Assembly: GCA_963734535.1 (NCBI GenBank)
Contig: CAVTHS010000006.1
Coordinates: 128,001-192,000, forward strand
Origin: an uncultured Chloroflexia bacterium
Lineage (GTDB): Bacteria > Chloroflexota > Limnocylindria > Limnocylindrales > CSP1-4
Direction of reading: 5' to 3'
Length of the DNA: 64,000 nt
The translations under genes and the position numbers were made by a program. Each line of letters starts with the position of its first letter. The first letter of the stretch is position 1. Of the stretch, positions 20,232 through 44,091 are shown in pieces. The notes below the pieces were generated by a model, which searched no databases, had not been told where the DNA came from, and was given only the letters and a program-made list of their open reading frames with translations.

Positions 20232-22184
<1,953 letters not shown>

Positions 22185-30527: not shown

Positions 30528-31782
30528 CGTTCGAGAGGATAGCCGTCAGCAGGTCGAAGCAGGCGCGGTCCCAGCTCCGAGGCACGAAGCTGTCGCGGAT
30601 CGCCTTCATTCGGGACTCGACGGGCTCGGGGTCGTCCCACCAATGGCGGATGACCCGGTAGAGGGCATCGCCGTCGTTGGCTGGCACGGCCTCCACGAAC
30701 CGCGAGACCTCGTCCGCTGGGATCGCATCGGTGACGATGCTCGGCTTCCCGTATCGCAGCGCCTCCCTGATCGGGAGGCCCCATCCCTCCGCGAGCGATG
30801 GGAAGGCCAGGAATCGGCAGCCCCCGTAGAGAGCCGCGAGCTCTGGGTCACTCGCGTCCGTCACCACGCGGACGCGGCTCTGCAGCGCCGGTTCTGCCGC
30901 GAGGCGCTCGAAGAACGCTCCGTCCTGGGGGTGTCGGCGCCCCCCGATCACCAGCCACGGCACGTTTCCGGCTCCTCGGTCCGAGGCAAGCCAGCGCGAC
31001 CACGCATCGAGCAGGAGGACGTGGTTCTTGCGCGGATGGATCGTCCCGACGCTGAGCACGTACGGTGTCTCCGGGCAGAGGCCCCGCGGGTCGGCGGCCG
31101 CGGGCAGGATCGGATCGGGGGGCAGGACGGCCGTGACGTGTTGGTGGGCGACCTGGGCGACCTCGGCGGCGACCTCGGGCGAGTCTGCCGCCAGCGCATC
31201 CGCCGCACCGAGGAGCAGGGTCAGGTCGGCCGCCGCGGCGACGCCCTGCGCATCGCCGTACCAGCTCGCGCCGGTGATCGGCAGCATGTCGTGCACCAGC
31301 TGTGCCAGCCTTGCCCCCGATCGGGCTCGGGCAGCGACCGCGCCCGCCGCCATCCCCGGCGCGATCCAGGGGGCTCCAAGGACCAGGAGCGTGTCCAGGG
31401 GCCCGATCTCGAGCGGTTGCCCGGTCCTTCCTGCCCGGCGCGCGAGGATGCGCCGACCGACCGAGCGCGCGCGTTCCTGGACACCGCGGGGCGCGTGCGC
31501 GGAGATGCGCAGGGCGAGCTCGGCGCCACGGGCGAATCGCCGCCCACCGGGGGTCGTGGCATCGAGCAGGACCTCACGGACTGCGTCCCGGGTGACCACA
31601 ACCGTCCGCGTCTCGACGCCCACCGTCGCCGCGGCCGCGGGAAGGTGGCGGGCATAGCCGTCGGCGAGCCGCTGGATGCCGGTCGGCTGGGTCGCCGCGG
31701 CCTGGTAGACGAGGAGGTCGTTCACCACGATCAGGAGGCGGCCGGCCACGGCGGCGTCCGCGCGCTCTGTATTGGGGGTCAC
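30517..31782 (-). CDS. GT4 glycosyltransferase
   Basis: TGIQR, VHDMLP, VGTIHPRKN, PSLAEGWGLPIRE. Confidence 0.88.
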   Translation of the reverse strand: MTPNTERADAAVAGRLLIVVNDLLVYQAAATQPTGIQRLADGYARHLPAAAATVGVETRTVVVTRDAVREVLLDATTPGGRRFARGAELALRISAHAPRGVQERARSVGRRILARRAGRTGQPLEIGPLDTLLVLGAPWIAPGMAAGAVAARARSGARLAQLVHDMLPITGASWYGDAQGVAAAADLTLLLGAADALAADSPEVAAEVAQVAHQHVTAVLPPDPILPAAADPRGLCPETPYVLSVGTIHPRKNHVLLLDAWSRWLASDRGAGNVPWLVIGGRRHPQDGAFFERLAAEPALQSRVRVVTDASDPELAALYGGCRFLAFPSLAEGWGLPIREALRYGKPSIVTDAIPADEVSRFVEAVPANDGDALYRVIRHWWDDPEPVESRMKAIRDSFVPRSWDRACFDLLTAILSNDGN

Positions 31783-33023
31783 ACGCCCCTGCCCTGGAAG
31801 ACGACCGGGACCGTCCGGATCGCAATCTCGAGATCCATGAGCAGCGACCAGTGCTCGATGTACTCCAGGTCGTCGGCCATCCGTTGCTCGAAGTCCGCGT
31901 CGACCCGACGACGCACCTGCCAGAGCCCCGTCAGGCCCGGACGGACCGTCAGGCGAATCCGGTGCCGCGGTTCGTAGCGTTCGACCTCGTCGAGGCCGGC
32001 AGGTCGAGGACCGATCAGGCTCATTCGCCCAACGAGCACGTCGAACAGCTGGGGAAGCTCGTCGAGGCTGAAGCGGCGAAGGAACTGCCCAAGCGATGTG
32101 ACGCGTGGATCCTGCTCCAGCTTGAATGCAGGTCCCCTGGTGGAATTCGCCTCCCAGAGCGCCGCGCGCTCCGCGTGGGCCCCTTCGCGCATCGTGCGGA
32201 ACTTGCGAAGCGTGAAGGTTCGCCCATAGAGGCCTGCCCGCTGGTCGGAGTAGATGATGGGTCGACCCTCGAGCACGAGGATCGCCACGGCCGTCACGAG
32301 CATCGGGATGGCTGCCAGCACGATCAGGATGACCGACGAGACGATGTCCGCGATCCGCTTGATCGCGCGATCCGTCGGTGCGAGCACCGAGGGATAGAGG
32401 ATGAGCGAGCTGCCCGAAAGGACGACGATCGGTCGCGTGAGGGACTCGGAGAGGCGGGCGAGGTCCAGCATCACGGGCTCGCCGCGCACGAGGGCGTCCT
32501 CGGCGCCGGCACCGAGGTGGGGAAGCGGCGTCTCCACGACCGTTTCGGCGTTCCCCGCACCGCCCGCGCGTGCGCCGCTGAGGGCGCTGACACCGACGCA
32601 GAGAAGCGCTCCAACGATCACGAGGAGCCTGCTGGCGAGCGTCTTGTCAGCCAGGTACAGGACGCCCGAGCAGGCAACGAGCCAGATCGCGGCGGCCATG
32701 ACCAGTCGGGTCGGACGCCGGGGGAGGGTCGGGTACACGGGGTTCACCGCCCGGAGCGCGAGCGGCCAGAACATGCCGCCGAAGAGCGCCGTGAGCAGCA
32801 GGGCGGGCCTGGTCAGGTCGTCGGATGATCCTGGCTGGGAGGGCAGGAGCAGCTGGCGAACGACGGCCGCAGCCGGAAGCGCCAGGATGCCGGCCACGAC
32901 ATCCACGAGGACGATGCGGTCGCCGAGGGGGCCGAGGACCGGGATTGGTCGCTGGGCCGACGACCGCCGCGATGGGCTGGCCGGTGCGGTTTCGCCCGCC
33001 GGAGGCGCAAGCGGCACGGTCAC
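31779..33023 (-). CDS. Priming polyprenyl-phosphate sugar phosphotransferase (Bac_transf)
   Basis: IKRIADI, KFRTM, DPRVT..G.FLRRFSLDELPQL, MSLIGPRP, RPGLTGLWQV, DLEY; N-terminal TMs. Confidence 0.92.
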   Translation of the reverse strand: MTVPLAPPAGETAPASPSRRSSAQRPIPVLGPLGDRIVLVDVVAGILALPAAAVVRQLLLPSQPGSSDDLTRPALLLTALFGGMFWPLALRAVNPVYPTLPRRPTRLVMAAAIWLVACSGVLYLADKTLASRLLVIVGALLCVGVSALSGARAGGAGNAETVVETPLPHLGAGAEDALVRGEPVMLDLARLSESLTRPIVVLSGSSLILYPSVLAPTDRAIKRIADIVSSVILIVLAAIPMLVTAVAILVLEGRPIIYSDQRAGLYGRTFTLRKFRTMREGAHAERAALWEANSTRGPAFKLEQDPRVTSLGQFLRRFSLDELPQLFDVLVGRMSLIGPRPAGLDEVERYEPRHRIRLTVRPGLTGLWQVRRRVDADFEQRMADDLEYIEHWSLLMDLEIAIRTVPVVFQGRGV

Positions 33024-34585
33024 GCCACGGATCTGGCCGGGCCTGCCGTCCGACCGACCAGCGGCCCGGCGGCCATCCCCAGGGCGAGCCCGCCCATGAC
33101 CGCGGCGTAGCTTCGTACCTGCGGAATGTCCCAGAAGCCGCAGACCAGGAACGTGACGGCGGCGGCGATCAGATAGGGCGCCATCGTGTGCCGGCGCCGC
33201 CAGACCTGCCAGGCGGAGTAGAGGATCACGGTCGCGTTCGTGATCCCCAGCGGAAGGCCCCCCTCGGCGAATCCGTGGAGCAGGATGTCGTGGGCGTACG
33301 AGATCTGGCGCTGCGCGAAATCGCCGAACCGATCGAGGCTGCGCCAGCCGCCACCCACGAGGGGGCTCGCGAGCGTGATCGAGACGGCCGCGATCCAGGT
33401 GTTCACCCGGTTGATGTCGCTCTCGGTGCTGCCGTTGATCGTCTGGACGATTGCGTCGAGGTTCGTCCCGTAGCGGACGGCGACCAGGCCGACGAGCGTG
33501 ACCGCGCCGACTGCGATGCCCGCGATGGACAGGCGCCGATCGACGCGCCCGCTCGCGAGCACCGCGATCACCGATCCAACGCCAACGGCGATCAGTGGGC
33601 CGCGGGACCAGGTGAGGACGATGGTCAGGAGCGCGAGCCCGATGACCCCGAACGGGAGCAGCCGGCCCCGCCGGAGCGCCGCGGCCACCGCGAATGGCAG
33701 GGCCGTCGCGACTCCCATCGCAGTCGGAGTGGGGTAGCCAAGCGCGCCGAGCCGGCCATTGATGATGCCTGGGAACGTGATGAGATCCACGCCGGGGACG
33801 CCGACCCACGCGACGAGGGCGAGCCCACACGCGACGACCGTGGTTGCCAGGACCACGTCCGTGAGGACCCTGTCCCGGCCCGCGACGAGATGCGAGGCAG
33901 CGATCCAGGCCGCCATCAGCGCCATCGGGCCGCCGGCCACCCAGTGCAGGCCGTAGTCGAGGAACGCAGCGTCCTGGCCAACGGCGAAGTAGCCCGTCAC
34001 GGCGGTCCACGCGTAGAGCACCATCGCCGCGATGGCCGCCGCGACGACCCACCAGGGCGGTCCCAGCCGGCGCACGTCACCGAGGCTCGGCCCCAGCACG
34101 AACCGGTCGAGGAGCACCCTCGCCGCGGAGCCGTAGATCGGCACGACACGGAGGACCTCGCCGTACTGCGCGTCGATTGCGCCACCGAGGAACGGGACCA
34201 CCGCGATCGTGAGCAGGAGCCCGAACCACGGCCGGAGGAGGCCGAGCGCCAGGCCGGTGATGATCCAGGCGGGGATCGCCAGCGACGCGGTCGCCGGAAT
34301 GTGCCCGAGCAGCCAGAACGTCGCCGCGAGCGCCGGCAGCAACAGGTCCCATCGAGCGAGAACGCGGCCGAGTCCCGTGGCCGGGGCCGGTGCCTCCCGC
34401 ATCGCGCGCCGCTCGGCTCGCGTGGGCACCCCCGAGCGGGTCGACCGTGTGGCAGCCCCGGCCGGTGCGACCGGGTCGCTCGGCTTCGTCGGTCCGGCGG
34501 CGGGTCCGGCGTGCCCGCCCTTCGACGCGGTCGGCGCCGCGGGTGGACCGACTCCCGGCCGTTTCGCTCGGCTCGCCTTGCCCAT
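33020..34585 (-). CDS. O-antigen ligase / O-oligosaccharyltransferase family (Wzy_C) membrane protein
   Basis: Many TM segments; LTWSRG, R.NTW, SPLVGGG, YAHD.LL...AEGG motifs. Confidence 0.85.
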   Translation of the reverse strand: MGKASRAKRPGVGPPAAPTASKGGHAGPAAGPTKPSDPVAPAGAATRSTRSGVPTRAERRAMREAPAPATGLGRVLARWDLLLPALAATFWLLGHIPATASLAIPAWIITGLALGLLRPWFGLLLTIAVVPFLGGAIDAQYGEVLRVVPIYGSAARVLLDRFVLGPSLGDVRRLGPPWWVVAAAIAAMVLYAWTAVTGYFAVGQDAAFLDYGLHWVAGGPMALMAAWIAASHLVAGRDRVLTDVVLATTVVACGLALVAWVGVPGVDLITFPGIINGRLGALGYPTPTAMGVATALPFAVAAALRRGRLLPFGVIGLALLTIVLTWSRGPLIAVGVGSVIAVLASGRVDRRLSIAGIAVGAVTLVGLVAVRYGTNLDAIVQTINGSTESDINRVNTWIAAVSITLASPLVGGGWRSLDRFGDFAQRQISYAHDILLHGFAEGGLPLGITNATVILYSAWQVWRRRHTMAPYLIAAAVTFLVCGFWDIPQVRSYAAVMGGLALGMAAGPLVGRTAGPARSVA

Positions 34586-34831: not shown

Positions 34832-35378
34832 GTGAAGCGCCCCTGGCTGCTCGCCGCTCTTCTGCTGGCCGCCTGTACCAGCACGCCGACGCCCCAGCCG
34901 ACGGCGACCCCGACGCCGGAGCCGTCGGTGGCCCCGCCGGCGTTCGCGAGTGTCACGGTCACCGGCATCGGGACGGTCCAGCGCGGCGAGTCGTCGGTTG
35001 CGACGCTCAGCCTGTCCTTCAACGAGGCGAGCGTCGTGGCGATCGGACCGAGGCCCCGGTTCGTTCGAGGTGGCGCTCACGGACAGCGCGGGCTCCGGAA
35101 CCACGGTGTCCTTCGTGGGGACTCCGTCAACCGCGAAGTCGCCGGGATCACTCGGGGCGTCGGCCACCGTGAGCGGAAACGTTCTGACGGTCTCCATCCT
35201 CGACTCCGACACGCTGAACATCGAGCCGGTGATCGTGACCGGCCTCGGGATCGCCGCCTCGTCCACGGCCGCGCTGGGTTCCATCGGGGCCACGATGGGA
35301 GCCTTCACTGGCTCGCTCGCGGGTGGTGCGACCGAGGACGTCCTGGTGTCCCCAGGTTCCGTGGTGGGCACGCCATAG
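34832..35378 (+). CDS. Lipoprotein consisting of a single S-layer-like domain; apparent frameshift near 35050
   Basis: VKRPWLLAALLLAAC lipobox, Pro/Thr linker, domain similar to the N-terminus of 37621..40197; TACATT -10 6 nt before GTG. Confidence 0.7.
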
Positions 35379-35643
35379 GAGTCTCGGGAGCCCAGGTTCG
35401 CCTCGCGTGCGCCCTCGTCGCCTCCGGACGGCGACCCCCGGCAGCCCGGTACCGGGGCCACGCCTGCGCGAACGCGGGCGGGCTGATCCGCCCGGATCTC
35501 CGAACGACCGGCCGGCCCACCTCTGGACTCCGTGTGGCAGACTCTTCCCGAGCCGCCAGTCCGGGTGGCCAATTTGACGTGGGACAGACACCGGGAACCC
35601 GCCCGGTCCGGGGCCGCCGGAACGGCCCGCTCGGAGGGCATGC

Positions 35644-36387
35644 TTGGACGAGTGGGGTCGCGACGAGCAGGAGCTCGTTCGGCGATGCAAGGAGGGATCG
35701 GAGGCCGCGTACGCGGTCCTCGTACGGCTCCACCGACCCCGCCTGTACACGCTCGCCTACCGCCTGCTGCTCGACCGCGAATCTGCCGAGGACGTGGTGC
35801 AGGAGACGTTCATCGCCGCCTTCCGGCAGATGGAACGCTTCGAGCCGCGCCCGTCGCTTGCCGCCTGGCTGAACACGATCGCGCTCCGGACCGCCACCCG
35901 CGCCGCCTCCCGTCAGCGATCCCGCCCGAAGGCCTCGCTCGACACGCCGGCGTTTCGCGACAATGGCCATTCGGCGGCCGACTGGCCGGGTGACCACCTG
36001 GGCCTTGGCGCGCTTGCCGACACGAGCCCCGGAACGGACCCGATCGCCGCGGCCGAGACCGCCGAGCTGCGCCGGGCGCTCGCGGCCGCCATCGTGGAGC
36101 TGCCCTTCAAGTACCGCGCCGCGGTCGTGCTCCGGCACGTGATGGGCCTCGACTACGCCGAGGCTGCCCGCGCGCTCGACCTGCCGCTCAACACGTTCAA
36201 GAGCCATCTGCTGCGCGGCACGAAGCTCCTCCGCGAGGGCCTGGCCCCCGAGCTCGACGCTCCGCGCACCGCCACGAACGGCTCGAACGGGCGCCATCCC
36301 GCCGAGGTGGGCGTGGGCGATCGGGTTGCCGAGGCCGCCGACATGGCCGAGATCCGGCCGGTGCCGGAGCGGATCGCCGGCGGCTGA
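35644..36387 (+). CDS. ECF sigma-70 factor
   Basis: AEDVVQETFIAAF, AWLNTIA (region 2); LP..YRAAVVLR..GLDYAEAA..LDLPLNTFKSHLLRG (region 4). Confidence 0.93.
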   Translation: MDEWGRDEQELVRRCKEGSEAAYAVLVRLHRPRLYTLAYRLLLDRESAEDVVQETFIAAFRQMERFEPRPSLAAWLNTIALRTATRAASRQRSRPKASLDTPAFRDNGHSAADWPGDHLGLGALADTSPGTDPIAAAETAELRRALAAAIVELPFKYRAAVVLRHVMGLDYAEAARALDLPLNTFKSHLLRGTKLLREGLAPELDAPRTATNGSNGRHPAEVGVGDRVAEAADMAEIRPVPERIAGG

Positions 36388-36467
36388 GCGACCGAGCGGG
36401 CGCAACTCGCGGGTGAGGGCGTCGGGGTCCCGTCGGGCGGCGCCGGTTCCGGCACGGATTGGCAGGC

Positions 36468-36547
36468 GTTGCCCGGGGTGCAACAAATCGGTCAGGCGAG
36501 TGTTGACGTGCTGCTGAGCGCCGCCTTGCGTGTCCTGCAACGCCGGC
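36468..36547. repeat. REP-like palindrome pair (GTTGC-N7-GCAAC family)
   Basis: GTTGCCCGGGGTGCAACAAATCGG and TTGCGTGTCCTGCAACGCCGGC resemble the copies at 45305-45504. Confidence 0.55.
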
Positions 36548-36603
36548 GTGCCGGAGCGCGGACCAGCGCCTGGGCGGATCCGCCGTCCTCCCGCCGCTCC
36601 CCC

Positions 36604-36631
36604 TGCAACTTTCCGGCCTCTCCCCGTCATT
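36604..36631 (+). promoter_or_regulatory. Putative ECF-type promoter for the anti-sigma gene
   Basis: TGCAAC-N15-CGTCATT ending 8 nt before GTG at 36640. Confidence 0.45.
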
Positions 36632-36639
36632 CATAGGAT

Positions 36640-37443
36640 GTGAGCCTCACTCCGTCCCCGCGCGAGCCCCTCGATCACGCTGGCGCGCGCCGCCTGATCG
36701 ATGCGTTCCTCGTGGACGACCTGCTCGAGGCGGACGCTTCGCGACTGGCAGCCCACGTCAAGGGATGCCCGGCGTGCGCGGCCGAGATCGGCGGGACCAC
36801 GCGACTGCTCGCGCTGCTCGGCAGCCTGCCGACGCCGCCGCCGGCGCCGGACCTCGACGAGCGGATCTTCGCTGCCGCCATCGCGGACCGGGCCCGACGG
36901 CACGCTCACCGCTCGTGGCTCCAGGACCTCCAGACGCAGGTCTTCCGGGGCGCTGTCCGCACCACCGGCACGCTCGTGGTGGCCATCGTGACCGTTGGAT
37001 TGCTCGGCGGTGCGGCGGTCCTGGCCGCAGCGCTGCTCACGCAACCCGTCCCACCACCGCGTGCTACAGTCGGGCCCAGCATGACGCCGACGCTCGCGCC
37101 GAGCATCGCCCAGCCGGTCGTGTCCGCGGCACCCTCCGTCAAGGAGACCCCGCCGGCCGTGGTCGTGACCCCGGCCCCCACCGCCAGACCGGCGGTCAGC
37201 CCCTCACCAACCCCGCTCCCGTCCGCCAGCCCGGCGGTCTCGGCCGAGCCCAGCGCGACTCCCTCCACGTCGCCGAGCGCGAGTCCCGAACCGTCGCCAA
37301 GCGCGACCGCGGAACCGTCGCCCACCCCTACGCCGTCTCCATCCCCGTCGCCGACGAAGCGGCCCCGGCCATCGCCGTCGCCCAGCCCGTCGCCGACTCC
37401 AACCCCGGTGCCTTCCGAGGCACCGTCCCCCACATTGCCGTAA
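36640..37443 (+). CDS. Zinc-finger (HxxxCxxC) anti-sigma factor with one TM and a Pro/Ser/Thr-rich extracellular tail
   Basis: HVKGCPAC, TM LVVAIVTVGLLGGAAVLAAALL, SPSPTP tail; downstream of the ECF gene. Confidence 0.85.
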   Translation: MSLTPSPREPLDHAGARRLIDAFLVDDLLEADASRLAAHVKGCPACAAEIGGTTRLLALLGSLPTPPPAPDLDERIFAAAIADRARRHAHRSWLQDLQTQVFRGAVRTTGTLVVAIVTVGLLGGAAVLAAALLTQPVPPPRATVGPSMTPTLAPSIAQPVVSAAPSVKETPPAVVVTPAPTARPAVSPSPTPLPSASPAVSAEPSATPSTSPSASPEPSPSATAEPSPTPTPSPSPSPTKRPRPSPSPSPSPTPTPVPSEAPSPTLP

Positions 37444-37620
37444 CAACGGGGCGGGCAGGGCCCGCCACGTCGTTCCGGGCCTTGCGCAAGGCAATGGAAC
37501 AGGACAGACAGCCGGATCGGTCGACACGACGAAAGGAGCCCACCGGACCGACCCGCAGCCGGGAGCCGACAGCCCCGGTCCATGCACAAGATCCAGATAT
37601 CCCCTAAGGGAGGATTTCAC

Positions 37621-40197
37621 TTGAATCTTATGAAGAAGGCGATCAGCGCAGCCACGAGTGCCGCGCTTCTCGCTTCCCTTCTCGCGACGGCCGTTGCGCC
37701 GTCCGCGTTTGCCGCGATTACGGTCGCGGGCATTCGGGACGATCCCCCAGGGTGGCACGTCGGCGACGGCCGCCACCTTCACGTTTACCGAGAACTCGGC
37801 CGCCGCGCTGCTCGACGAACGGCACCATGACGGTGACGATCTCGCCGGCGTCACCGGTTGTCGGCACCGTGTCCTTCGTCGGCACGCCGACCCTCACTGG
37901 CAACACCGCTTCGCTCGGGGCGACGATCACCTCGACGAGCAATTCCTTCACGATTAGCATCACCGGCCACGACAACCTGAACGTCGAGACGCTCGTCGTC
38001 GGTGGCCTGAAGATCGCAGCCTCGGCCACCGCGACCAAGGGCGCCATCGTCGCCACGGTCAGCGACTCCGCTGCTGGCCTGATCTACGGTGCGTTCGTCA
38101 GCTCGACCTCGACCGCGACCGGCAAGGTCAACGGCGCAACCAGCGCCAACACGACGTCCATCGACGTCGCGATCGACACCGGCTCGTGCCCGTTCGTTTC
38201 CGGCACGTTCACGATTGGCACCGAGTCGGTGACCGCTACCACCGCCGGCGCGGTCGCGGGCGTGTACACCCTCCTCATCACCTCGCCCGCAACGGGAACA
38301 ACGCTCGCCCATCCGGCGAATGAGGTCGTGACCGAGTCGGTCGCGAACTGCAGTTCGACGACGCTCGGCTCCCCGGGCACCGTTGGCGGGGCCATCACGT
38401 TCGACACGCCGACCGCGCCGACCGTCTTCCCCGGCGAGAACTTCTCGCCCGCGGGCAACCTCGTCCTCCACACGACTGACGCCAGCACCGGCACCGGCTA
38501 CCTTGCCGCCGCCGCCGTCATCACCGCGAAGATCGCGACCGCCGGGGTCACGTTCTCCGTTGCACCGCTGGCGACCGTCTACACACAGGCGTCGTGGCTC
38601 GCCAACGCCGCGACTCCGTCTCCCCGCGCTTGATCGGGATCCTGTCTTCAAGTTCGTCGCGACACCGTTCGTCTCGAACCCTGCCCTCGGTACCCTGTCG
38701 GCCGACAAGACGTCGGTGAGCTGGACCGTGGACACGGCGTCGGCGCAGCTCGTCGCGCTCCAGATCAGCGGGATCCAGTACAACGTCGCATCCACCGTCG
38801 TCGGTGGCACGGCAGTCAGCGTCGGCGTCACCGTCTCCGGCGCTCTCGTCAATCCGGCGAGCCAGAGCAATGCAATGGTCGCGCGGCCGGTCACGGCCAC
38901 GGCCACGGCCACGACGGTCTACATCGCTGAGACCAACCAGGCCGCCGGCACGATCTCGATCGTGGAGAACGCTGCCGCCACCTTCACCGATGGCACGGGC
39001 AGCTACAACACGTTCGAAGTCTGCCTGACCTCCGGCGAGGCCTTCAGCTCGGCTCCGTCCGCGACCGTCACGGTCGGCAACCTGAACCTCCGCGCCGCCA
39101 ATGCGGCCGTTGCCCCAGGCACTGCCGTCGTCGGCACGCCGTTCACCTCGAACACCGGCAATCCGCAGTGCTACTACTGGACCGTGTGGTCGGCCAGCAC
39201 GGCCGCCTCGACGATCCAGATCAGCGGCATCGCGGTCGACGTGCCGTCGACCCTTGGTATCGGCAGCACGAACGCAGCTGTCGGTATCGGCAGCGTCGCC
39301 GCCTTCGATGTCACGAATGCGATCACCCTGACGATCGCGAACCGCCTGTTCCGCAACCAGGTCGCGGTCACGGCGCTCACCCAGCCGTTCATCGCGGCCG
39401 GTGCGCTTGATGCCGCGGTTGGCGATCTCCAGATCGCCGAGACGGGCATGGGCCAGCTCAAGGCAGGCGAGTTCATCTGCGTCGCGGTCCTGCCGCGCAC
39501 GACAAACGGTGTTCGTACGCAGGACACCTTCCTCACTGGCCTGAACACCGCCGGGCTCCCGAAGCTCACCGGGGCAAACGGCATCGTGGTCGACGCCGTC
39601 ACCACCTCCGCGTGCGACAACAGCTTCCAGGACCTCTACTACGGCGGGTTCCAGCCGGCTCCGCTCGGGTACGCCCGGGCGTTCGGTTTCACCATTCAGC
39701 AGCAGTCGCTGACCGGCAATGGCATGGTCACGATCAGCAACATCCATTACAGCACCACGGCTGACGCTCCCAACGGACCGGTCTCCGTGGCTGTCTGGGG
39801 TTCGGGCGGTTCGCCGACGAACCTCATGTTCCAGTCCACCGTCTCGAATGCCAAGATCGGCATCGCGTCGTCCGCTGCGGTCACGACGTCGGGCACCGCG
39901 CTCGGCGCCACCAAGACCGGGCCCTTCTCGCTGTCCACGAAGGTTGCCAAGCTGGGCAAGTACGTCACCTGGAAGTTCTCGACTGGCTCTGCCCTGGTCG
40001 GCAAGTCCGTCCAGATCTGGGTCGCCACGAAGAACTCCGCTGGAAAGTGGAGCGCCTTCGCCCTGAAGACCGCCCGGACGGTTGACGCCTCCGGAAACGC
40101 GTACTTCTGGTGGAAGACCTCCAGCAAGGCGTGGATCTCCGTCCGCGCCGGCTACCTTGGTACCCTGAGCGTGGCCACCCAGGCACGCTGGCTCTGA
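37621..40197 (+). CDS. Putative S-layer / major surface protein (~860 aa); apparent frameshifts near 37735, 37815 and 38630
   Basis: AAGGGAGG RBS, Sec signal MKKAISAATSAALLASLLATAVAPSAFA, Thr/Ala/Ser/Val/Gly-rich beta-strand composition, Lys/Trp-rich C-terminal domain, own terminator. Confidence 0.7.
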
Positions 40198-40310: not shown

Positions 40311-41936
40311 ATGGCGATGCCCGGGCTCACTCGCGCGCTTGTCGGGGCGGTTCTCGCTGGATCGCTCGCGATCGGTGCCATGGGGAGTCCAGCGCGCGCG
40401 GTGGATGCATCGGACATTCCCGGGATCCCGCTGCCAGGGTCCGTCGCGACCGGGCGGCTGGGCGGCCCGATCTACGATGTCGTCTATCGGTTCACCGTTG
40501 CGCCCGGCTACGTGATCGTCGCAAGCCTCTCCGGCCCGACGGGAACCGACTTCGACCTCTATCTCTTCGATTCCTCGGCCACCACGGTCACGTCGAACGT
40601 GGGGCAGGTGGCAAGATCCGTGGGGCCCACCAGCATCGAGTCGATCTCGGCACCGTCGCCGTACGGAGGGACCTACTACCTCGATCTCAATGGTGCCAGC
40701 GATGCCGGGGGTGACTACCGGCTGACTGTCCAGATGGTGCCGGATCGCACGCCGCCCACCGTCTCGATGGTCATGGCCGGCGGTCGGGCGGCCATGAACC
40801 AGCTGACGGTGCCGGTGACCCTGTCGGCGGCCGATGACCTCTCGGGTGTCGAGGCGATGGCATTCAGCGTGGATGGCTCGATCTACTCGGAATGGACGCC
40901 GTACCAGCGTTCCACGACCTGGACGTTCGCGCCCGGGGACGGCCCCCGGACGCTGTGGGCGAAGGTTCGGAACGGTGCGGGCGTCGAGTCATCGCCGACC
41001 AGCGCCACGGTGACGATCGATACGGTTGAGCCATCGATTGAGACGATCAACCCGGCCCCCGGCATGAGCGTCGTCGGTCTGCGGCCGCAGTTCACGGTCA
41101 CATTCGACGAGCCGATGGACCCCGCATCGTGGAGCGACCTCGGCCTGATCGTGCAGTCAGCCTCCGGGCCTCTCGTCCCGGGTGCCTTTACGTATGACGT
41201 CGCGCGACGCATGGGATCGTTCGTGCCGTCTGCCGCCCTGCAGCCCGGGGCCACGTATGTCGTGACGATCGGCAACGTCATGGACATCGCGGGCAACCGG
41301 CCCGCTTCTCGGGGCTCGTGGACGGTCACGCCGCTCGCCCCGGTGGATCTCGCGGCGCGAGCCGCCCCATCGGTCCTTTCCGTTGGAGGCTCCTCGACCA
41401 TCGTCGTGGTCCTGACCGGGGCGCCGGCGCCCGCGACGGTCACGGTCCTGGCGAACCCCGACTCCACGACCGGTTCCACGGCCCTCACCATGCTCGTGGT
41501 CCGTGATGGACGCGCGACCCTGCAGGTTGCGCCCGACAGGAACACCGTGTACCGGTTGAGATACGAGGGTGCGAGCGGGATTGCATCCGCGCAGGCTGAC
41601 GTTCGCGTCCTCGTTCGGCGCTCGGTCGCGCTTGTCGGCGTGACCACTTCACGCGTGGCGGCGGCGCGGGTTGGACGATCCGTCAAGGTCGTTGCCGCCA
41701 TCATTCCCCGCGCCGCCGGGGTGTCGGTGTCGATGCGGCTGTATCGCTATGACAGCGGCCGGCGCGCCTGGGTCTATGCCGGCAGCCGCGGACGGACCTC
41801 CGACGCCAGTGGCCGTGTCTCGACCACGTGGACACCAACCTCTGCGGGGTCCTACTACTGGCGTGCCGCCGTTGCCTCGACGGTCGAATTCGCGAACAAT
41901 CTCAGCCCGTTCTACCGCTGGTCGGTGACCCGCTGA
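40311..41936 (+). CDS. Secreted protein with PPC-like and Ig-like (Big_5-like) domains and the shared C-terminal domain
   Basis: Signal peptide ending ARA; TDFDLYLF..GTYY; TVTFDEPMD..DIAGN; TATCCT -10 6 nt before ATG. Confidence 0.75.
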   Translation: MAMPGLTRALVGAVLAGSLAIGAMGSPARAVDASDIPGIPLPGSVATGRLGGPIYDVVYRFTVAPGYVIVASLSGPTGTDFDLYLFDSSATTVTSNVGQVARSVGPTSIESISAPSPYGGTYYLDLNGASDAGGDYRLTVQMVPDRTPPTVSMVMAGGRAAMNQLTVPVTLSAADDLSGVEAMAFSVDGSIYSEWTPYQRSTTWTFAPGDGPRTLWAKVRNGAGVESSPTSATVTIDTVEPSIETINPAPGMSVVGLRPQFTVTFDEPMDPASWSDLGLIVQSASGPLVPGAFTYDVARRMGSFVPSAALQPGATYVVTIGNVMDIAGNRPASRGSWTVTPLAPVDLAARAAPSVLSVGGSSTIVVVLTGAPAPATVTVLANPDSTTGSTALTMLVVRDGRATLQVAPDRNTVYRLRYEGASGIASAQADVRVLVRRSVALVGVTTSRVAAARVGRSVKVVAAIIPRAAGVSVSMRLYRYDSGRRAWVYAGSRGRTSDASGRVSTTWTPTSAGSYYWRAAVASTVEFANNLSPFYRWSVTR

Positions 41937-42076: not shown

Positions 42077-42135
42077 GGATGAATCCGACGGCCCGGAGCC
42101 GAGAACCACATGGGCGTCGAGAGTGGGAGGTGGTC

Positions 42136-44091
42136 ATGAATAGACCCGATCAGAAGTTCCGCAAGCGCTTTGCCGTCCTGGTGACGGGAGGCGTTCTCGT
42201 CGCAGCACTGTTCCCGATGGCCGGAAGCGTGCTGGCAGCCGTGCCGACGGTGCCGACTGGCCTGACGCTCGCCCCGGCGAGTGACAGCGGCACTGCGGGC
42301 GACAACATCACCAACGACACGACGCCGACGATCACGGGCAGCAGGGAAGCCGCCACCACGGTGAGCCTCTTCGCCAACGGGACGCCGAAGGGTTCCGATG
42401 CCGGCGCTGGCACCTCGTGGAGCATCGACGCGACCCCTGCGCTGACCGAGGGGACGTACTCGTTCACGGCCACGGCCTCGAACGTGGACGGTACGAGTGG
42501 CAGTTCGGCACCGCTTTCGATCACGATCCTCACGCCACCGACCGTGACGGTCAAGCCGGCGACAGCCCAGGCGAATCCGACCAGCACCTCGCCGGTCAAC
42601 TTCACCGTCGTCTTCAGCCACGCGGTCACCAACTTCGTGGCGAGTGACGTCACGCTCTCCGCCAGCACGGCCGGCGGTACCCTGATCCCGACTCTCACCG
42701 GGAGCGGCTCGACCTACAACGTCGCGGTCACCGGGATGACGACAGCGGGGACCGTCTTCGCCTCCGTCGCCGCTGGCCTCGCCACCGACGTGGCCGGCAA
42801 CACGAACCAGGCGTCGGCCAATTCGGACAACTCCGTCGTGTGGGATCCGACCCTCGGGCCGACGGTGACCATCAACCAGGCTTCCGGGCAGGCGGACCCG
42901 ACGGCGACAACCCCGATCAACTTCACGGTGGTCTTCAGCGCAGCCGTCACCGGCTTCGACGGGACCGACGTCACGCTGTCTGGCACTGCCGGCGCCACGA
43001 CCACGACGGTCACCGGGAGCGGGACCACCTATAACGTGGCCGTCTCGGGCATGACCGCCAACGGCACTGTCATCGCGACGATCGCAGCCGACCGGGCCCT
43101 CAGCACAGTCGGAAGCCACCCGAACCATGCGTCGACGAGCACCGACAACTCGGTGACCTTCGCGTTCGGTAACAAGTTCCTCGTGACGTCGAGCAGCTAC
43201 ACGCCGGTCCCCGGCGGGGCTGTGACGATCAGCGCCCAGCTGGCGACCGCGGCCGGCGTGGCGGTTGCCACGTCCGGCGTCGTGGTGACGTGGTCGAGCA
43301 CGAACGGTGGCACCTTCTCGTCTGCCACCAGCACGACAAACGCGAGCGGCATCGCGACGGTCACGTTCACCGTCAGCTCCACGAGCGGGACCGTACACAC
43401 GGTCATTGCCACTGGCGGTGGCTTCACCGGGACCAGCTCGAACATCACGGTGGGCGCAAACACGGCCGCGGTGATCACGATCACCACGTCCGCGCCCATG
43501 CCGCCGGGCGCCCATGATCCGGTCATCACCTGGGGCCAGGGCTTCACCCTCGGCATCCAGTTCGCCGCCAGCGGGTCCGGCAAGACGGTCGCGCTCCAGG
43601 GAACCCGCGACGGGACCACCTGGACGACGATCACCAGCCTCACGATGGCCTCGTCGGGAGGCACCACGTACTACTACACCCCGGTCACCAACCTGTGGTA
43701 CCGGGCCGTGTTCGCCGGGACCGCTGACCTCGGCGCCGCGACCAGCAACCAGGTCCGCACGGTCGTCCGCCAGATCGCGATCATGCGACCGACCAACTTC
43801 GGGCACGTCCGGACCATCTCGCACAACACGTCGGTCACGTTCACCACGACGGTTCGCCCGGCTCGGCCGGAGCTCGCGCCGGCGACGGTGAGCTTCTGGT
43901 TCTACCGCCAGTCGGGCGGCTCGTGGGTGCTCGCAGCCAAGCGTGACGTCCTGATCGACGCCGCCGGGCTGGCCCGCACCACGTTCACGTTCACGTCGTC
44001 GGGCCAGTGGTACGTCCGCTCTGCGGCGAACCCGACGCCCTACAACGCGAACAGCGTCATGAGCCCAGTCGAGCGGTACAGCGTCCTCTGA
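42136..44091 (+). CDS. Secreted Thr/Ser-rich multi-Ig-domain surface protein with the shared C-terminal domain
   Basis: GGAGG RBS; signal peptide; SDSG..GDNITNDTTPTITG; two repeats of QADPT..P.NFTVVFS.AVT.F..DVTLS. Confidence 0.85.
   Translation: MNRPDQKFRKRFAVLVTGGVLVAALFPMAGSVLAAVPTVPTGLTLAPASDSGTAGDNITNDTTPTITGSREAATTVSLFANGTPKGSDAGAGTSWSIDATPALTEGTYSFTATASNVDGTSGSSAPLSITILTPPTVTVKPATAQANPTSTSPVNFTVVFSHAVTNFVASDVTLSASTAGGTLIPTLTGSGSTYNVAVTGMTTAGTVFASVAAGLATDVAGNTNQASANSDNSVVWDPTLGPTVTINQASGQADPTATTPINFTVVFSAAVTGFDGTDVTLSGTAGATTTTVTGSGTTYNVAVSGMTANGTVIATIAADRALSTVGSHPNHASTSTDNSVTFAFGNKFLVTSSSYTPVPGGAVTISAQLATAAGVAVATSGVVVTWSSTNGGTFSSATSTTNASGIATVTFTVSSTSGTVHTVIATGGGFTGTSSNITVGANTAAVITITTSAPMPPGAHDPVITWGQGFTLGIQFAASGSGKTVALQGTRDGTTWTTITSLTMASSGGTTYYYTPVTNLWYRAVFAGTADLGAATSNQVRTVVRQIAIMRPTNFGHVRTISHNTSVTFTTTVRPARPELAPATVSFWFYRQSGGSWVLAAKRDVLIDAAGLARTTFTFTSSGQWYVRSAANPTPYNANSVMSPVERYSVL

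Follow-up and report, generated by a model that had tools for sequence, protein, structure and literature searches.

The locus considered here raises the question of why a small membrane-anchored lipoprotein and a large secreted protein should carry the same domain, and whether the sigma/anti-sigma gene pair standing between their genes connects the two. It lies in a stretch of 64,000 nucleotides (hereafter, the window) of contig CAVTHS010000006.1 from an uncultured member of the Chloroflexota (Limnocylindrales), in which the small lipoprotein gene (34832..35378) is followed by genes for an ECF sigma factor and a ZAS anti-sigma factor and then by the large gene (37621..40197).

A domain common to the small and the large protein

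The small gene (plus strand, GTG start) encodes a signal peptide with a lipobox (LAAC), a Pro/Thr linker and a single cohesin-like beta-sandwich (about 34925..35375), while the large gene (plus strand, TTG start) encodes a secreted all-beta surface protein of about 857 amino acids, allowing for three extra bases, whose signal peptide ends in AFA. BLASTP of in-frame pieces of the two proteins gave 34 identities over 65 positions (E 3e-15), and a six-frame search of the organism's own 3.2-Mb genome with the piece of the large protein retrieved nothing beyond that piece and the small gene (E 6e-12). In the relative G029 the large protein is intact and matched both frames of the small gene (34925-35062 and 35058-35300, joint E 3.3e-20), and profile-profile comparison of the two families (hhalign) yielded a probability of 99.9 and an E value of 3.3e-33 over 127 columns, covering residues 28-154 of the large protein. 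The duplication proposed by eye in the original prediction is therefore real: the domain of the small protein (~130-140 amino acids) is an ancient paralogue of the N-terminal domain of the large protein (domain 1; 37705..38170, plus strand), and the copy extends N-terminally as far as the signal-peptidase site (AFA) of the latter. Four of the five matching stretches listed at that time are genuine, but the fifth, LVSPGSV versus LGSPGTV after an insertion, is unsupported; the hhalign alignment stops earlier, and MAFFT pairs the last strand of the small protein with the directly following segment of the large one, without an insertion.

In a tree with 14 rows of small proteins and 10 rows of domain 1, the two families separate into distinct clades (support 92/91), which indicates a single ancient duplication; the lipobox-containing members form a subclade of their own (98/94). 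The small proteins represent a separate and more slowly evolving family, with end branches mostly of 0.04-0.46 as compared to 0.39-1.99 for domain 1, and the loop PGSLGA is conserved in both. No Pfam family covers the shared domain, and a search among 1.84 billion (1.84e9) representative proteins recovered 164 relatives with two architectures; the large protein, which belongs to this family of 164, likewise gave no Pfam match. The AF2 model of the small-protein orthologue from G010 (pLDDT 90.6) was matched by Foldseek to about 20 cohesins (E 7e-5 to 1e-3), with the best hit to 9ifr (E 1.4e-5), and by VIA-align to 9ifr with a Z score of 10.2 (122 of 123 residues aligned) and to cohesins with Z scores of 8-10. 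The shared domain is a new cohesin-like beta-sandwich.

Both genes are interrupted in the window, the small one by one frameshift (~35048-35057) and the large one by three (~37735, ~37811 and ~38620). All four are single extra bases of this assembly, and the genes are intact in relatives. That the two genes are real pseudogenes is quite improbable, even though the four frameshifts fall within their 3.1 kb and none within the ~5.2 kb of four neighbouring genes, because each consists of one extra base, RNA contigs of relatives lack these bases (across 37696-37902, one contig has 205 letters and 2 gaps where the window has 207, and another is net -1 around 38614-38636), orthologues are open in G007, G029, G030 and G001, those of the small gene are intact, further window genes look cut short in the same manner (e.g., the GDP-mannose dehydratase fragments at 20329-22184), and the same type of break occurs in many genes of several relatives assembled into few contigs.

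The conserved module and its large surface protein

The assignments of the two regulators between the genes were confirmed. The ECF-type sigma factor (35644..36387, plus strand) matches Pfam Sigma70_r2 (2.1e-17) and Sigma70_r4_2 (1.8e-12) as well as NCBIfam TIGR02937 sigma70-ECF (78.8 bits, cut-off 42.9), and the ZAS anti-sigma factor (36640..37443, plus strand) exceeds the cut-off for Pfam zf-HC2 (24.6 versus 22.2 bits). The latter has its zf-HC2 domain (H-x3-C-x2-C) in the cytoplasm and crosses the membrane with one helix; its outer tail of ~130 amino acids is rich in Pro, Thr and Ser, looks of low complexity by eye and contains no domain found by a Pfam search. About 110 nt 5' of the ECF start, an alignment of 11 loci revealed a conserved block with a hairpin (35515..35580, plus strand) containing GTGTGGCAGACT, which occurs once in the genome (C6:163532, equivalent to window position 35532); this block is probably the promoter and leader of the ECF gene.

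A near-invariant leader of ~180 nt (37444..37620, plus strand) extends from the anti-sigma stop codon to the TTG of the large gene and includes the ribosome-binding site GGGAGGA. Its alignment columns are on average 83% identical in 10 loci, and it is present in 17 of 41 genomes of the genus at 77-95% nucleotide identity; hairpins are predicted (z-score -1.68; 39 predicted pairs, 1 of them compensatory), and a search of Rfam returned no family. Anti-sigma orthologues of at least 65% identity occur in 16 of the 41 genomes, always immediately 5' of the leader, which amounts to all 16 assessable cases, the contig of the 17th leader-containing genome ending 272 nt past the leader. The gene order ECF, anti-sigma, large protein, PPC/Big_5 protein is the same in all 10 loci with upstream DNA, the unit of anti-sigma and large gene is block-duplicated in G001, and the large gene that follows this leader and anti-sigma gene in G018 and G020 has no detectable domain 1 and retains the C-terminal module only. 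In some relatives, mobile elements lie between the genes for the sigma and anti-sigma factors. The conserved unit consists of the ECF sigma factor, the anti-sigma factor, the ~180-nt leader and an acidic all-beta secreted protein of ~860 amino acids; the synteny of lipoprotein, ECF, anti-sigma and large genes suggested by the window is not generally conserved in relatives. As judged from the gene order of the conserved unit, the sigma/anti-sigma pair may control the large gene. Two secreted surface proteins with Ig-like domains are encoded downstream on the plus strand, a PPC + Big_5 protein (40311..41936) and a Big_13/Big_12 protein (42079..44091; all by Pfam), and both keep their synteny with the large gene in relatives. 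Their C-termini are related to each other (E 5e-11).

Several features make it plausible that the large protein is the main, S-layer-like coat protein, as had been proposed. The orthologue from G007 (AF2 model with pLDDT 90.4) has in its mature form 80.8 kDa, a pI of 4.78, 6 Cys and a composition rich in T, A, V, G and S, which falls within the ranges given for S-layer proteins in PMC4232325. In two metatranscriptomes of the same study, RNA-derived contigs reach summed word depths of 4110 and 8357 over 37505-37691, 17-520 over the body of the large gene, at most 31 over the ECF gene and 0-26 over the small gene, compared to 0 to 33 for two DNA runs, but contig depth cannot rank genes, and these values are a hint only. 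The C-terminal beta module of ~105 amino acids (39865..40194, plus strand) recurs at the end of a 5'-nucleotidase-like protein (PF02872) encoded elsewhere in the genome (53% identity, E 5e-33) and ends other large proteins of relatives, and its presence on an exoenzyme suggests that it serves surface attachment. No SLH domain was found in a search of the genome, so another anchor would be needed if the large protein forms the coat. Finally, the upstream part of the window is occupied by a surface-glycan cluster, whose initiating enzyme is a WbaP-like polyprenyl-phosphate sugar-1-phosphate transferase (31779..32999, minus strand; Pfam Bac_transf 7e-60, NCBIfam EPS_sugtrans 2e-75, under its cut-off). 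It is accompanied by a membrane protein of the Wzy_C/O-antigen-ligase type (33020..34585, minus strand; Pfam Wzy_C 2e-11, 44.3 bits versus a cut-off of 31.7), a candidate O-oligosaccharyl transferase with weak NCBIfam matches to O-glycosylation ligase and TfpM, both under cut-off. Both correspond in enzyme type to proteins known from S-layer glycosylation clusters, namely WsaP and WsaB (PMC2943079).

Alternatively, the large protein may form no lattice at all but serve at the surface in another way, for example as a sheath or fibrillar adhesin, in which case the small protein would be related to its tip or base domain but bound to the membrane. The whole-model fold matches are generic Ig arrays, among them adhesins, pilins and one archaeal S-layer protein; the adhesin PrgB ranks first (E 2e-13), with antigen I/II and further Ig arrays behind it. 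The structures similar to domain 1 (Z 8-10) include pilin domains and the stalk domain of an adhesin (9ifr); codon usage is ordinary (72nd and 33rd percentile of a ribosomal-protein-trained score, with ribosomal genes at the 97th-99th) and gives no signal of high expression; and two further Ig-domain proteins stand in the cluster. We consider this reading possible but on the unlikely side, given the S-layer-typical composition and pI, the near-invariant leader with very deep RNA contigs over it, and a single-copy gene whose body varies in a cassette-like manner behind a constant leader and C-terminal module. An LPXTG-type sorting signal was also not seen on reading the C-terminus.

Placement and possible role of the small protein

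Every member of the small-protein family has the domain joined to a membrane anchor by a Pro/Thr linker, 13-40 residues long. The anchor is a transmembrane helix in most members, 10 of 13 orthologues carrying it at the N-terminus without a lipobox, and a lipobox in one subclade; the predicted lipobox of the window's protein is plausible because genes for Lgt and LspA are present in the genome. The small gene occurs in 13 other genomes of the genus. Its neighbour is the ECF gene in only two of them (G010, G029) and mazG-rph-rdgB in seven; in two it lies elsewhere near the cluster (G005, G064), and in two its contig is too short for placement. Six of the seven genomes with the mazG-rph-rdgB location have the module on a different contig; in the seventh, G003, no module was found. 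The idea of lipoprotein, ECF and anti-sigma as a conserved sensing triad is not supported by this distribution. The 24 metagenome loci include 11 of the rdgB type and 4 of the ECF type. The module is present in 11 of the 13 genomes and 22 of the 41 have neither small gene nor module, a co-occurrence counted across kin that does not constitute independent evidence. As to exceptions, a profile search found no small gene in G030 (95% complete, 140 contigs), which has domain 1, and no module was found in G017 (94% complete), which has the small gene. The family is confined to the module-bearing lineage, with its gene usually elsewhere in the genome; it is an older, separate family, and the lipobox form beside the ECF gene is the state of a sublineage.

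Tentatively, and with the chances still somewhat against it, we favor a role of the small protein in fastening the coat to the membrane or giving it a place to dock. It would present the binding surface of domain 1, including the loop PGSLGA, close to the membrane, and might thereby tether the coat there or provide a site for its docking or nucleation, either by taking the place of domain 1 in a contact between such domains or by holding the same wall ligand; it would not be a component of the sigma/anti-sigma switch. The restriction to the module-bearing lineage argues for such a role, as does the decay of the gene in G001 to a remnant of 46 amino acids beside rdgB, where domain 1 has become very divergent. 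Against it stand the lack of linkage to the module in most genomes, the exceptions G030 and G017, the linker of only ~13 residues in G010, which is short for reaching an outer layer, and the shallow RNA contigs over the small gene, with the above limit on contig depths.

A doubtful but serious alternative is that the small protein binds a glycan or other envelope ligand in the wall zone independently, sharing only ancestry with domain 1, and that its adjacency to the module is incidental. Its usual unlinked location fits, as do a promoter-like upstream motif of its own (common to 7 of 12 aligned small-gene upstream regions and absent near the ECF and large genes), its slower evolution compared to domain 1 and a fold common to many binding modules. 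This reading accounts less well for the lineage restriction and the decay in G001, for a linkage to the module that arose repeatedly in different forms (G000, G010, G029, G005, G064 and metagenome loci L056-L058 and L060), and for the retention of PGSLGA in both families despite the fast evolution of domain 1.

A surveillance role, in which the lipoprotein within the lattice reports its integrity to the anti-sigma factor, which then releases the sigma factor, is unlikely. It draws on G000, G010, G029 and four metagenome contigs, where the small gene adjoins the module and points in the same direction, on the strict tie of the regulator pair to the large gene and on the lineage restriction. Against it speak the frequent mazG-rph-rdgB location off the module, the separate upstream motif of the transmembrane-anchored form, the module-bearing genomes G030 and G001 with no detectable small gene or only a remnant, and an anti-sigma outer part offering no Pfam domain as docking site.

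Comparison with known systems

The best structural match of the small protein's domain, 9ifr, comes from a fibrillar adhesin of a Gram-negative bacterium, in which it forms the CLIPPER domain (bioRxiv 10.1101/2025.04.25.650565, entitled "A global survey of intramolecular isopeptide bonds"). The identity is 13%, and the family of the small protein and domain 1 has no conserved lysine. The cohesins of cellulosomal anchoring scaffoldins (OlpA/OlpC, ScaB, ScaE) have the same nine-strand beta-sandwich (Z 8-10 over 116-129 aligned residues) and are likewise single surface-held modules attached by a Pro/Thr linker. In contrast to cohesins, the shared domain has no Pfam match, no dockerin was found in this genome, attachment is through a lipid or transmembrane helix and not through SLH or sortase, and the paralogue is the N-terminus of a coat-like protein instead of a part of a scaffoldin.

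The regulators resemble ECF sigma/class I (ZAS) pairs as well as the sigmaI/RsgI pairs, which control cellulosome genes (PMC6056542), in combining a sigma factor of regions 2 and 4 with a membrane anti-sigma factor (H-x3-C-x2-C) and in being encoded directly 5' of the presumed target surface-protein gene. They differ by the ~130-aa Pro/Thr/Ser tail of the anti-sigma factor without a recognizable sensor domain.

With the SLH-type S-layer systems of monoderm bacteria such as Geobacillus, Thermoanaerobacterium and C. thermocellum (Olp), in which S-layer proteins and exoenzymes have a cell-wall anchoring module in common (PMC4232325, PMC2943079), the locus shares a secreted acidic 80-kDa protein rich in T, A, V, G and S, a variable body between constant ends, a terminal module also found on an exoenzyme and a neighbouring glycan cluster that encodes WbaP-like and Wzy_C enzymes. 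It differs in having no SLH domain found in the genome and a shared module that is C-terminal and without a Pfam family, and its large protein is a candidate coat protein. To our knowledge, SLH-type systems lack an ECF/anti-sigma pair dedicated to the S-layer gene and placed 5' of it.

In the archaeal Sulfolobales, the outer lattice protein SlaA is combined with the membrane-anchored stalk protein SlaB, which is not a paralogue of any SlaA domain. The idea of a separate membrane-anchored protein holding the coat is the same as in the putative contact proposed here, but the host is bacterial and the domain of the small protein is paralogous to domain 1 of the large one.

Genes of the locus and their reading frames

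The genome from which the window is taken consists of 3.2 Mb in 14 contigs with about 70% G+C (89.9% complete, 7.1% contamination), and close homologues of its proteins carry the source labels 'Candidatus Limnocylindrales bacterium' or 'Chloroflexi bacterium'. The segment 34832-44091 contains six genes, all on the + strand, which code for a small lipoprotein (34832..35378), an ECF sigma factor (35644..36387), a ZAS anti-sigma factor (36640..37443), a large secreted protein (37621..40197) and two secreted Ig-domain proteins, one with PPC and Big_5 domains (40311..41936) and one with Big_13/Big_12 domains (42079..44091). The 177-nt spacer between the anti-sigma and large genes (37444-37620, + strand) is referred to as the leader. 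The two Ig-domain proteins share a related C-terminal region of about 75 amino acids (E 5e-11), and the pair lies 3' of the large gene in every relative with downstream DNA. Upstream of the small gene, a Wzy_C protein and a WbaP-like sugar transferase are encoded on the - strand at the end of a long surface-glycan cluster (700-34600), which also codes for GDP-mannose dehydratase-type enzymes, epimerases, a DegT aminotransferase and several GT4 glycosyltransferases.

As judged from family scores, the assignments of the original prediction are correct for the sigma and anti-sigma factors. The sigma factor contains only sigma-70 regions 2 and 4 (PF04542, 63.1 bits; PF08281, 47.2 bits) and scores 78.8 bits with TIGR02937 (cut-off 42.9), which identifies it as an ECF member, and the anti-sigma factor scores 24.6 bits with PF13490 (cut-off 22.2) and shows the H-x3-C-x2-C motif of ZAS class I as HVKGCPAC, followed by a hydrophobic stretch recognized by reading the sequence. 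The lipobox LAAC assigned to the small protein also stands, matching the pattern [LVI][ASTVI][GAS]C in a genome that codes for Lgt (PF01790, four matches above cut-off) and LspA (PF01252, one match).

Four frameshifts, each caused by one extra base in the window, interrupt the small gene (around 35048-35057) and the large gene (around 37735, 37811 and 38620), and are very probably assembly errors. A relative's RNA contig across 37696-37902 is two letters shorter than the window, with two gaps, a second RNA contig around 38614-38636 is shorter by a net one letter, and orthologues of both genes elsewhere have open frames. DNA contigs of run X1 over the small-gene frameshift record 684 letters against 686 in the window, with 2 gaps at unlisted positions. 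Other genes of the window also look cut by frameshifts, such as the GDP_Man_Dehyd fragments at 20329-21441 and 21477-22184.

Synteny and leader of the sigma/anti-sigma module

A view on the 41 other genomes of the genus and on metagenomic loci shows that the gene order ECF sigma, anti-sigma, large gene and PPC/Big_5 gene is kept in all ten loci with upstream DNA. The synteny anticipated in the original prediction thus holds for the sigma, anti-sigma and large genes and fails for the small gene, which adjoins the ECF gene in only 2 of the 13 genomes containing it (G010 and G029). The leader is found with 77-95% nucleotide identity in 17 of the 41 genomes and reaches a mean column identity of 83% over ten loci, while the large proteins encoded behind this near-invariant element are only about 31-68% identical. 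Anti-sigma orthologues (65-93% identity) are confined to genomes with the leader, being present in 16 of these 17 and lying each time a few hundred bases upstream of it; in the seventeenth, the contig ends in this region. Genome G001 contains the block of anti-sigma gene, leader and large gene in tandem (locus L030, 4700-12000), with 95% nucleotide identity over about 3.6 kb. The second anti-sigma gene of this genome has no sigma gene of its own. In two further genomes (G018, locus L036; G020, locus L037), the usual anti-sigma gene and leader precede a large gene in which neither the N-terminal domain (domain 1) nor any similarity to the usual body is detectable, the C-terminal module (39865..40194 in the window) being the sole part in common with the usual large protein; as judged from these gene sequences, the body of the coat gene has been replaced in the manner of a cassette. 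In four relatives (G029, G013, G002 and G021), an insert parts the ECF gene from the anti-sigma gene. The inserts of G029 and G013 contain mobile or toxin-antitoxin genes: that of G029 (L026, 8080-13658) codes for an IS1595 transposase, an AAA_14/DUF4143 protein, a Fic/RhuM protein and a DUF4160 protein, and that of G013 (L031, 2967-4779) for a HigBA-like pair of a Gp49 (HigB-like) and an HTH_3 protein.

The large gene probably starts at an invariant TTG rather than at the ATG three codons further on, because the latter is TGG in five of ten aligned loci. Hairpins are predicted in the leader, one of them overlapping the ribosome-binding site; covariation is seen in 1 of 39 predicted pairs, and the fold has a z-score of -1.68, with 7 of 200 shuffled sequences folding as well. 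No Rfam family matches the window at gathering scores, and none matches 35350-37700 at E <= 1. The spacer could combine a promoter with a stabilising or regulatory 5' leader. A 33-nt piece of it (positions 95-127) occurs a second time in the genome, on contig C9 (59571-59604), with 94% identity. A second stretch, at 35515-35580, is conserved in 11 of 11 aligned loci; it contains GTGTGGCAGACT, which occurs only once in the genome, followed by a hairpin, and precedes the start of the ECF gene by about 110 nt. The leader motif GGAAC-N17-CGGTC was discarded as a promoter candidate for lack of specificity (78 matches in the genome), and motif scans of 21 sequences and of the window's genome yielded neither a promoter assignable to the large gene nor a derivable regulon. 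The synteny nevertheless argues strongly for control of the large gene by the sigma/anti-sigma pair, which we consider quite likely. The anti-sigma factor, whose gene accompanies the sigma gene in 10 of 10 loci, is a putative binding partner and inhibitor of this sigma factor.

The domain common to the small and large proteins

The resemblance of the lipoprotein to the N-terminus of the large protein, initially noticed by eye, is borne out by BLASTP of the in-frame pieces (34/65 identities, E 3e-15) and by comparison of the two family profiles (79 and 84 sequences; probability 99.9, E 3.3e-33, 127 columns). The profile alignment spans residues 28-154 of the large protein, starting at the signal-peptidase site and ending with the first domain, and the rest of the large protein shows no match to the small one. 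Only the last of the matches listed originally, placed after an insertion in the large copy, finds no support in the profile and multiple alignments. Searched against the whole genome, the large-protein piece matches solely its own gene and the small gene, and the unbroken large protein of G029 aligns with the small gene both before and after the frameshift (joint E 3.3e-20). The loop PGSLGA and the N-x-E/G-L-x-I strands are conserved in the small proteins and in domain 1 alike. With the subfamilies combined in one profile, just 164 proteins were recovered from 1.84 billion representatives, almost all in two architectures, either of about 200 amino acids with the domain last or of 830-1290 amino acids with the domain first. 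The tree separates the small proteins from domain 1 as two clades (92/91 support), with shorter branches for the small proteins, indicating one old duplication after which the tethered copy evolved slowly and the exposed copy fast. The copied region starts at AFA, the end of the large protein's signal peptide, which fits derivation of the small gene from the large gene's 5' end.

The fold was modelled with AlphaFold2 on the intact orthologue of G010 (79-row alignment), which is 82% identical to the window copy over the C-terminal 105 residues. The model (pLDDT 90.6, pTM 0.81) is a sandwich of nine to ten strands with a cohesin fold: the best Foldseek match is 9ifr, the CLIPPER domain of an adhesin (E 1.4e-5), some 20 cohesins come next (E 7e-5 to 1e-3), and a scan independent of Foldseek gives Z 10.2 for 9ifr, Z 8-10 for cohesins (8.2-10.1; 116-129 residues aligned) and Z 8-9 for pilin domains, over a background of Z 7-8. 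The cohesin sequence family PF00963 is not matched, nor is any Pfam family at E <= 0.01 by the small-protein pieces or the large protein, nor any NCBIfam family by the domain, and the dockerin partner of cohesins (PF00404) was not found in the genome. A CLIPPER-like isopeptide stalk domain, which combines a conserved Lys with Asn/Asp and a catalytic acid, was rejected because no conserved isopeptide lysine occurs among the invariant or near-invariant columns of 79 and 16 sequences.

Orthologues of the small gene occur in 13 of the 41 other genomes and share one plan, in which a Pro/Thr linker of about 13-40 residues precedes the domain. In ten, the N-terminal part is a transmembrane anchor (MSERTFRAVVAAV...) without a recognizable lipobox; besides the window's own genome, the lipobox occurs only in G010 (LAAC, as in the window) and G017 (LVAC), and the copy of G024 is ended by a contig boundary. 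The lipobox forms constitute a subclade of the small proteins (98/94 support). Apart from the two genomes with ECF adjacency, the gene lies downstream of the cluster in G005, about 10 kb off on the other strand in G064, convergent to mazG-rph-rdgB in seven genomes, and on contigs too short for placement in two. Of the seven rdgB-type genomes, six contain the module on a contig other than that of the small gene, and none was found in the seventh, G003. Small-type genes are present in 24 of 30 metagenome loci, with rdgB alongside in 11, ECF downstream in 4 (in two of these Wzy_C lies upstream, as it does in the window), an anti-sigma gene immediately downstream in 1, an SL-type C-terminal module in front in 1, and no informative neighbours in 7. 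The metagenome contig L062 (1-1100) is either rearranged or chimeric: the last 67 residues of its small-type gene extend a frame that starts, by eye, like a cyclic-nucleotide-binding regulator, and the next gene codes for an anti-sigma factor, without an intervening ECF gene. The transmembrane forms have a motif of their own, TGTACYSTG, in 7 of the 12 upstream regions aligned; the window and 20 loci, scanned as 21 sequences, contain it nowhere else, not even near the ECF and large genes. A promoter common to the small gene and the ECF/large genes was rejected on the confinement of the motif, in these sequences, to transmembrane-form small genes.

A candidate coat protein and its tethered paralogue

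S-layer proteins are described in PMC4232325 as secreted, weakly acidic proteins of 40-170 kDa with few sulphur-containing amino acids. The large protein lies inside these ranges, with a Sec-type signal peptide (by eye), a mass of 80.8 kDa, a pI of 4.78, a composition rich in T/A/V/G/S and few Cys (6) and Met residues, and its model is confidently all-beta and multi-domain (pLDDT 90.4). The enzyme types of the neighbouring glycan cluster also occur in S-layer glycosylation clusters (PMC2943079). The C-terminal module (about 105 amino acids) also ends a 5'-nucleotidase-like protein (PF02872) encoded on the - strand of contig C10 (118889-120631; locus L038, 1390-3132; 53% identity, E 5e-33) as well as other large proteins of relatives, and looks portable from these sequences. 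The C-terminal ends of the PPC/Big_5 and Big_13 proteins give no BLASTP match to it, though they appear alike by eye. SLH domains (PF00395), a known S-layer anchor, were not found in the 90% complete genome. An S-layer protein should rank among the most abundant proteins of its cell. In two metatranscriptomes from one study, the depths of RNA contigs sum to 4110 and 8357 where the leader and the gene start lie, and to 17-520 along the large gene, 0-31 for the ECF gene and 0-26 for the small gene (0-33 in two DNA runs), but contig depth is a poor measure of abundance and cannot rank genes. Codon usage of the large gene, taken as a proxy for expression, is ordinary, and a whole-protein fold search returns only generic Ig-array matches, adhesins among them. 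Taken together, we regard the large protein as probably the major coat protein and as a candidate S-layer protein, which would self-assemble into a 2-D lattice over the cell.

The small gene and the module occur together in 11 of the 13 small-gene genomes and are both missing from 22 of the 41. Six genomes contain the module without a detectable small gene, including G030 (95% complete) and G001, which retains a 46-amino-acid remnant beside rdgB and has the most divergent domain 1. This co-occurrence is only suggestive, because kin are not independent. Complex prediction for the small domain of G007 (residues 62-208) with the mature large protein (30-827) gave 'no answer' (0.00 against a mark of 0.32), which speaks neither for nor against binding. 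Our preferred, still tentative reading is that the small protein would present a copy of the domain-1 binding surface near the membrane and thereby tie or seed the coat, either by direct contact or via a common wall ligand. As an explanation of how cells could retain a coat that has no SLH domains, this would be simple and testable.

A wider proposal, which we consider improbable, adds a dedicated coat-homeostasis circuit: the mucin-like tail of the anti-sigma factor (about 130 amino acids) would extend into wall and coat, absence of or damage to the coat would cause the tail to be cut, the sigma factor so released would switch on the large gene by way of the invariant leader, and the tethered paralogue would seed or anchor the first row of coat subunits. 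If true, this would represent a self-monitoring S-layer assembly system in Chloroflexota. The original notion of a sensing triad, in which the lipoprotein signals via the anti-sigma and sigma factors, is unlikely, because the small gene is usually unlinked to the module and has an upstream motif of its own, and the outer part of the anti-sigma factor is a low-complexity Pro/Thr/Ser tail (by eye) without a Pfam domain.

To our knowledge, the cell envelopes of Limnocylindria are undescribed, and we know of no S-layer gene characterised in Chloroflexota outside Dehalococcoidia. A full-text literature search returned nothing that links Limnocylindria to an S-layer protein, no ECF/anti-sigma pair tied to an S-layer gene in Chloroflexota, and nothing comparable to the whole arrangement for the class Limnocylindria; where both 'Limnocylindria' and 'S-layer' are named, the S-layer text concerns Dehalococcoides only. 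What the locus provides is a candidate for the major coat protein, whose domain family is new and modelled with confidence, and a sigma/anti-sigma pair, never separated from the large gene, on which dedicated control of coat-gene transcription can be tested. Taken singly, the ECF/ZAS pair, the beta-sandwich surface proteins and the lipoprotein are of known kinds; new in their combination are the invariant leader that fixes a dedicated sigma/anti-sigma pair to a candidate coat gene, the cohesin-like domain family and the membrane-tethered paralogue of the coat's first domain.
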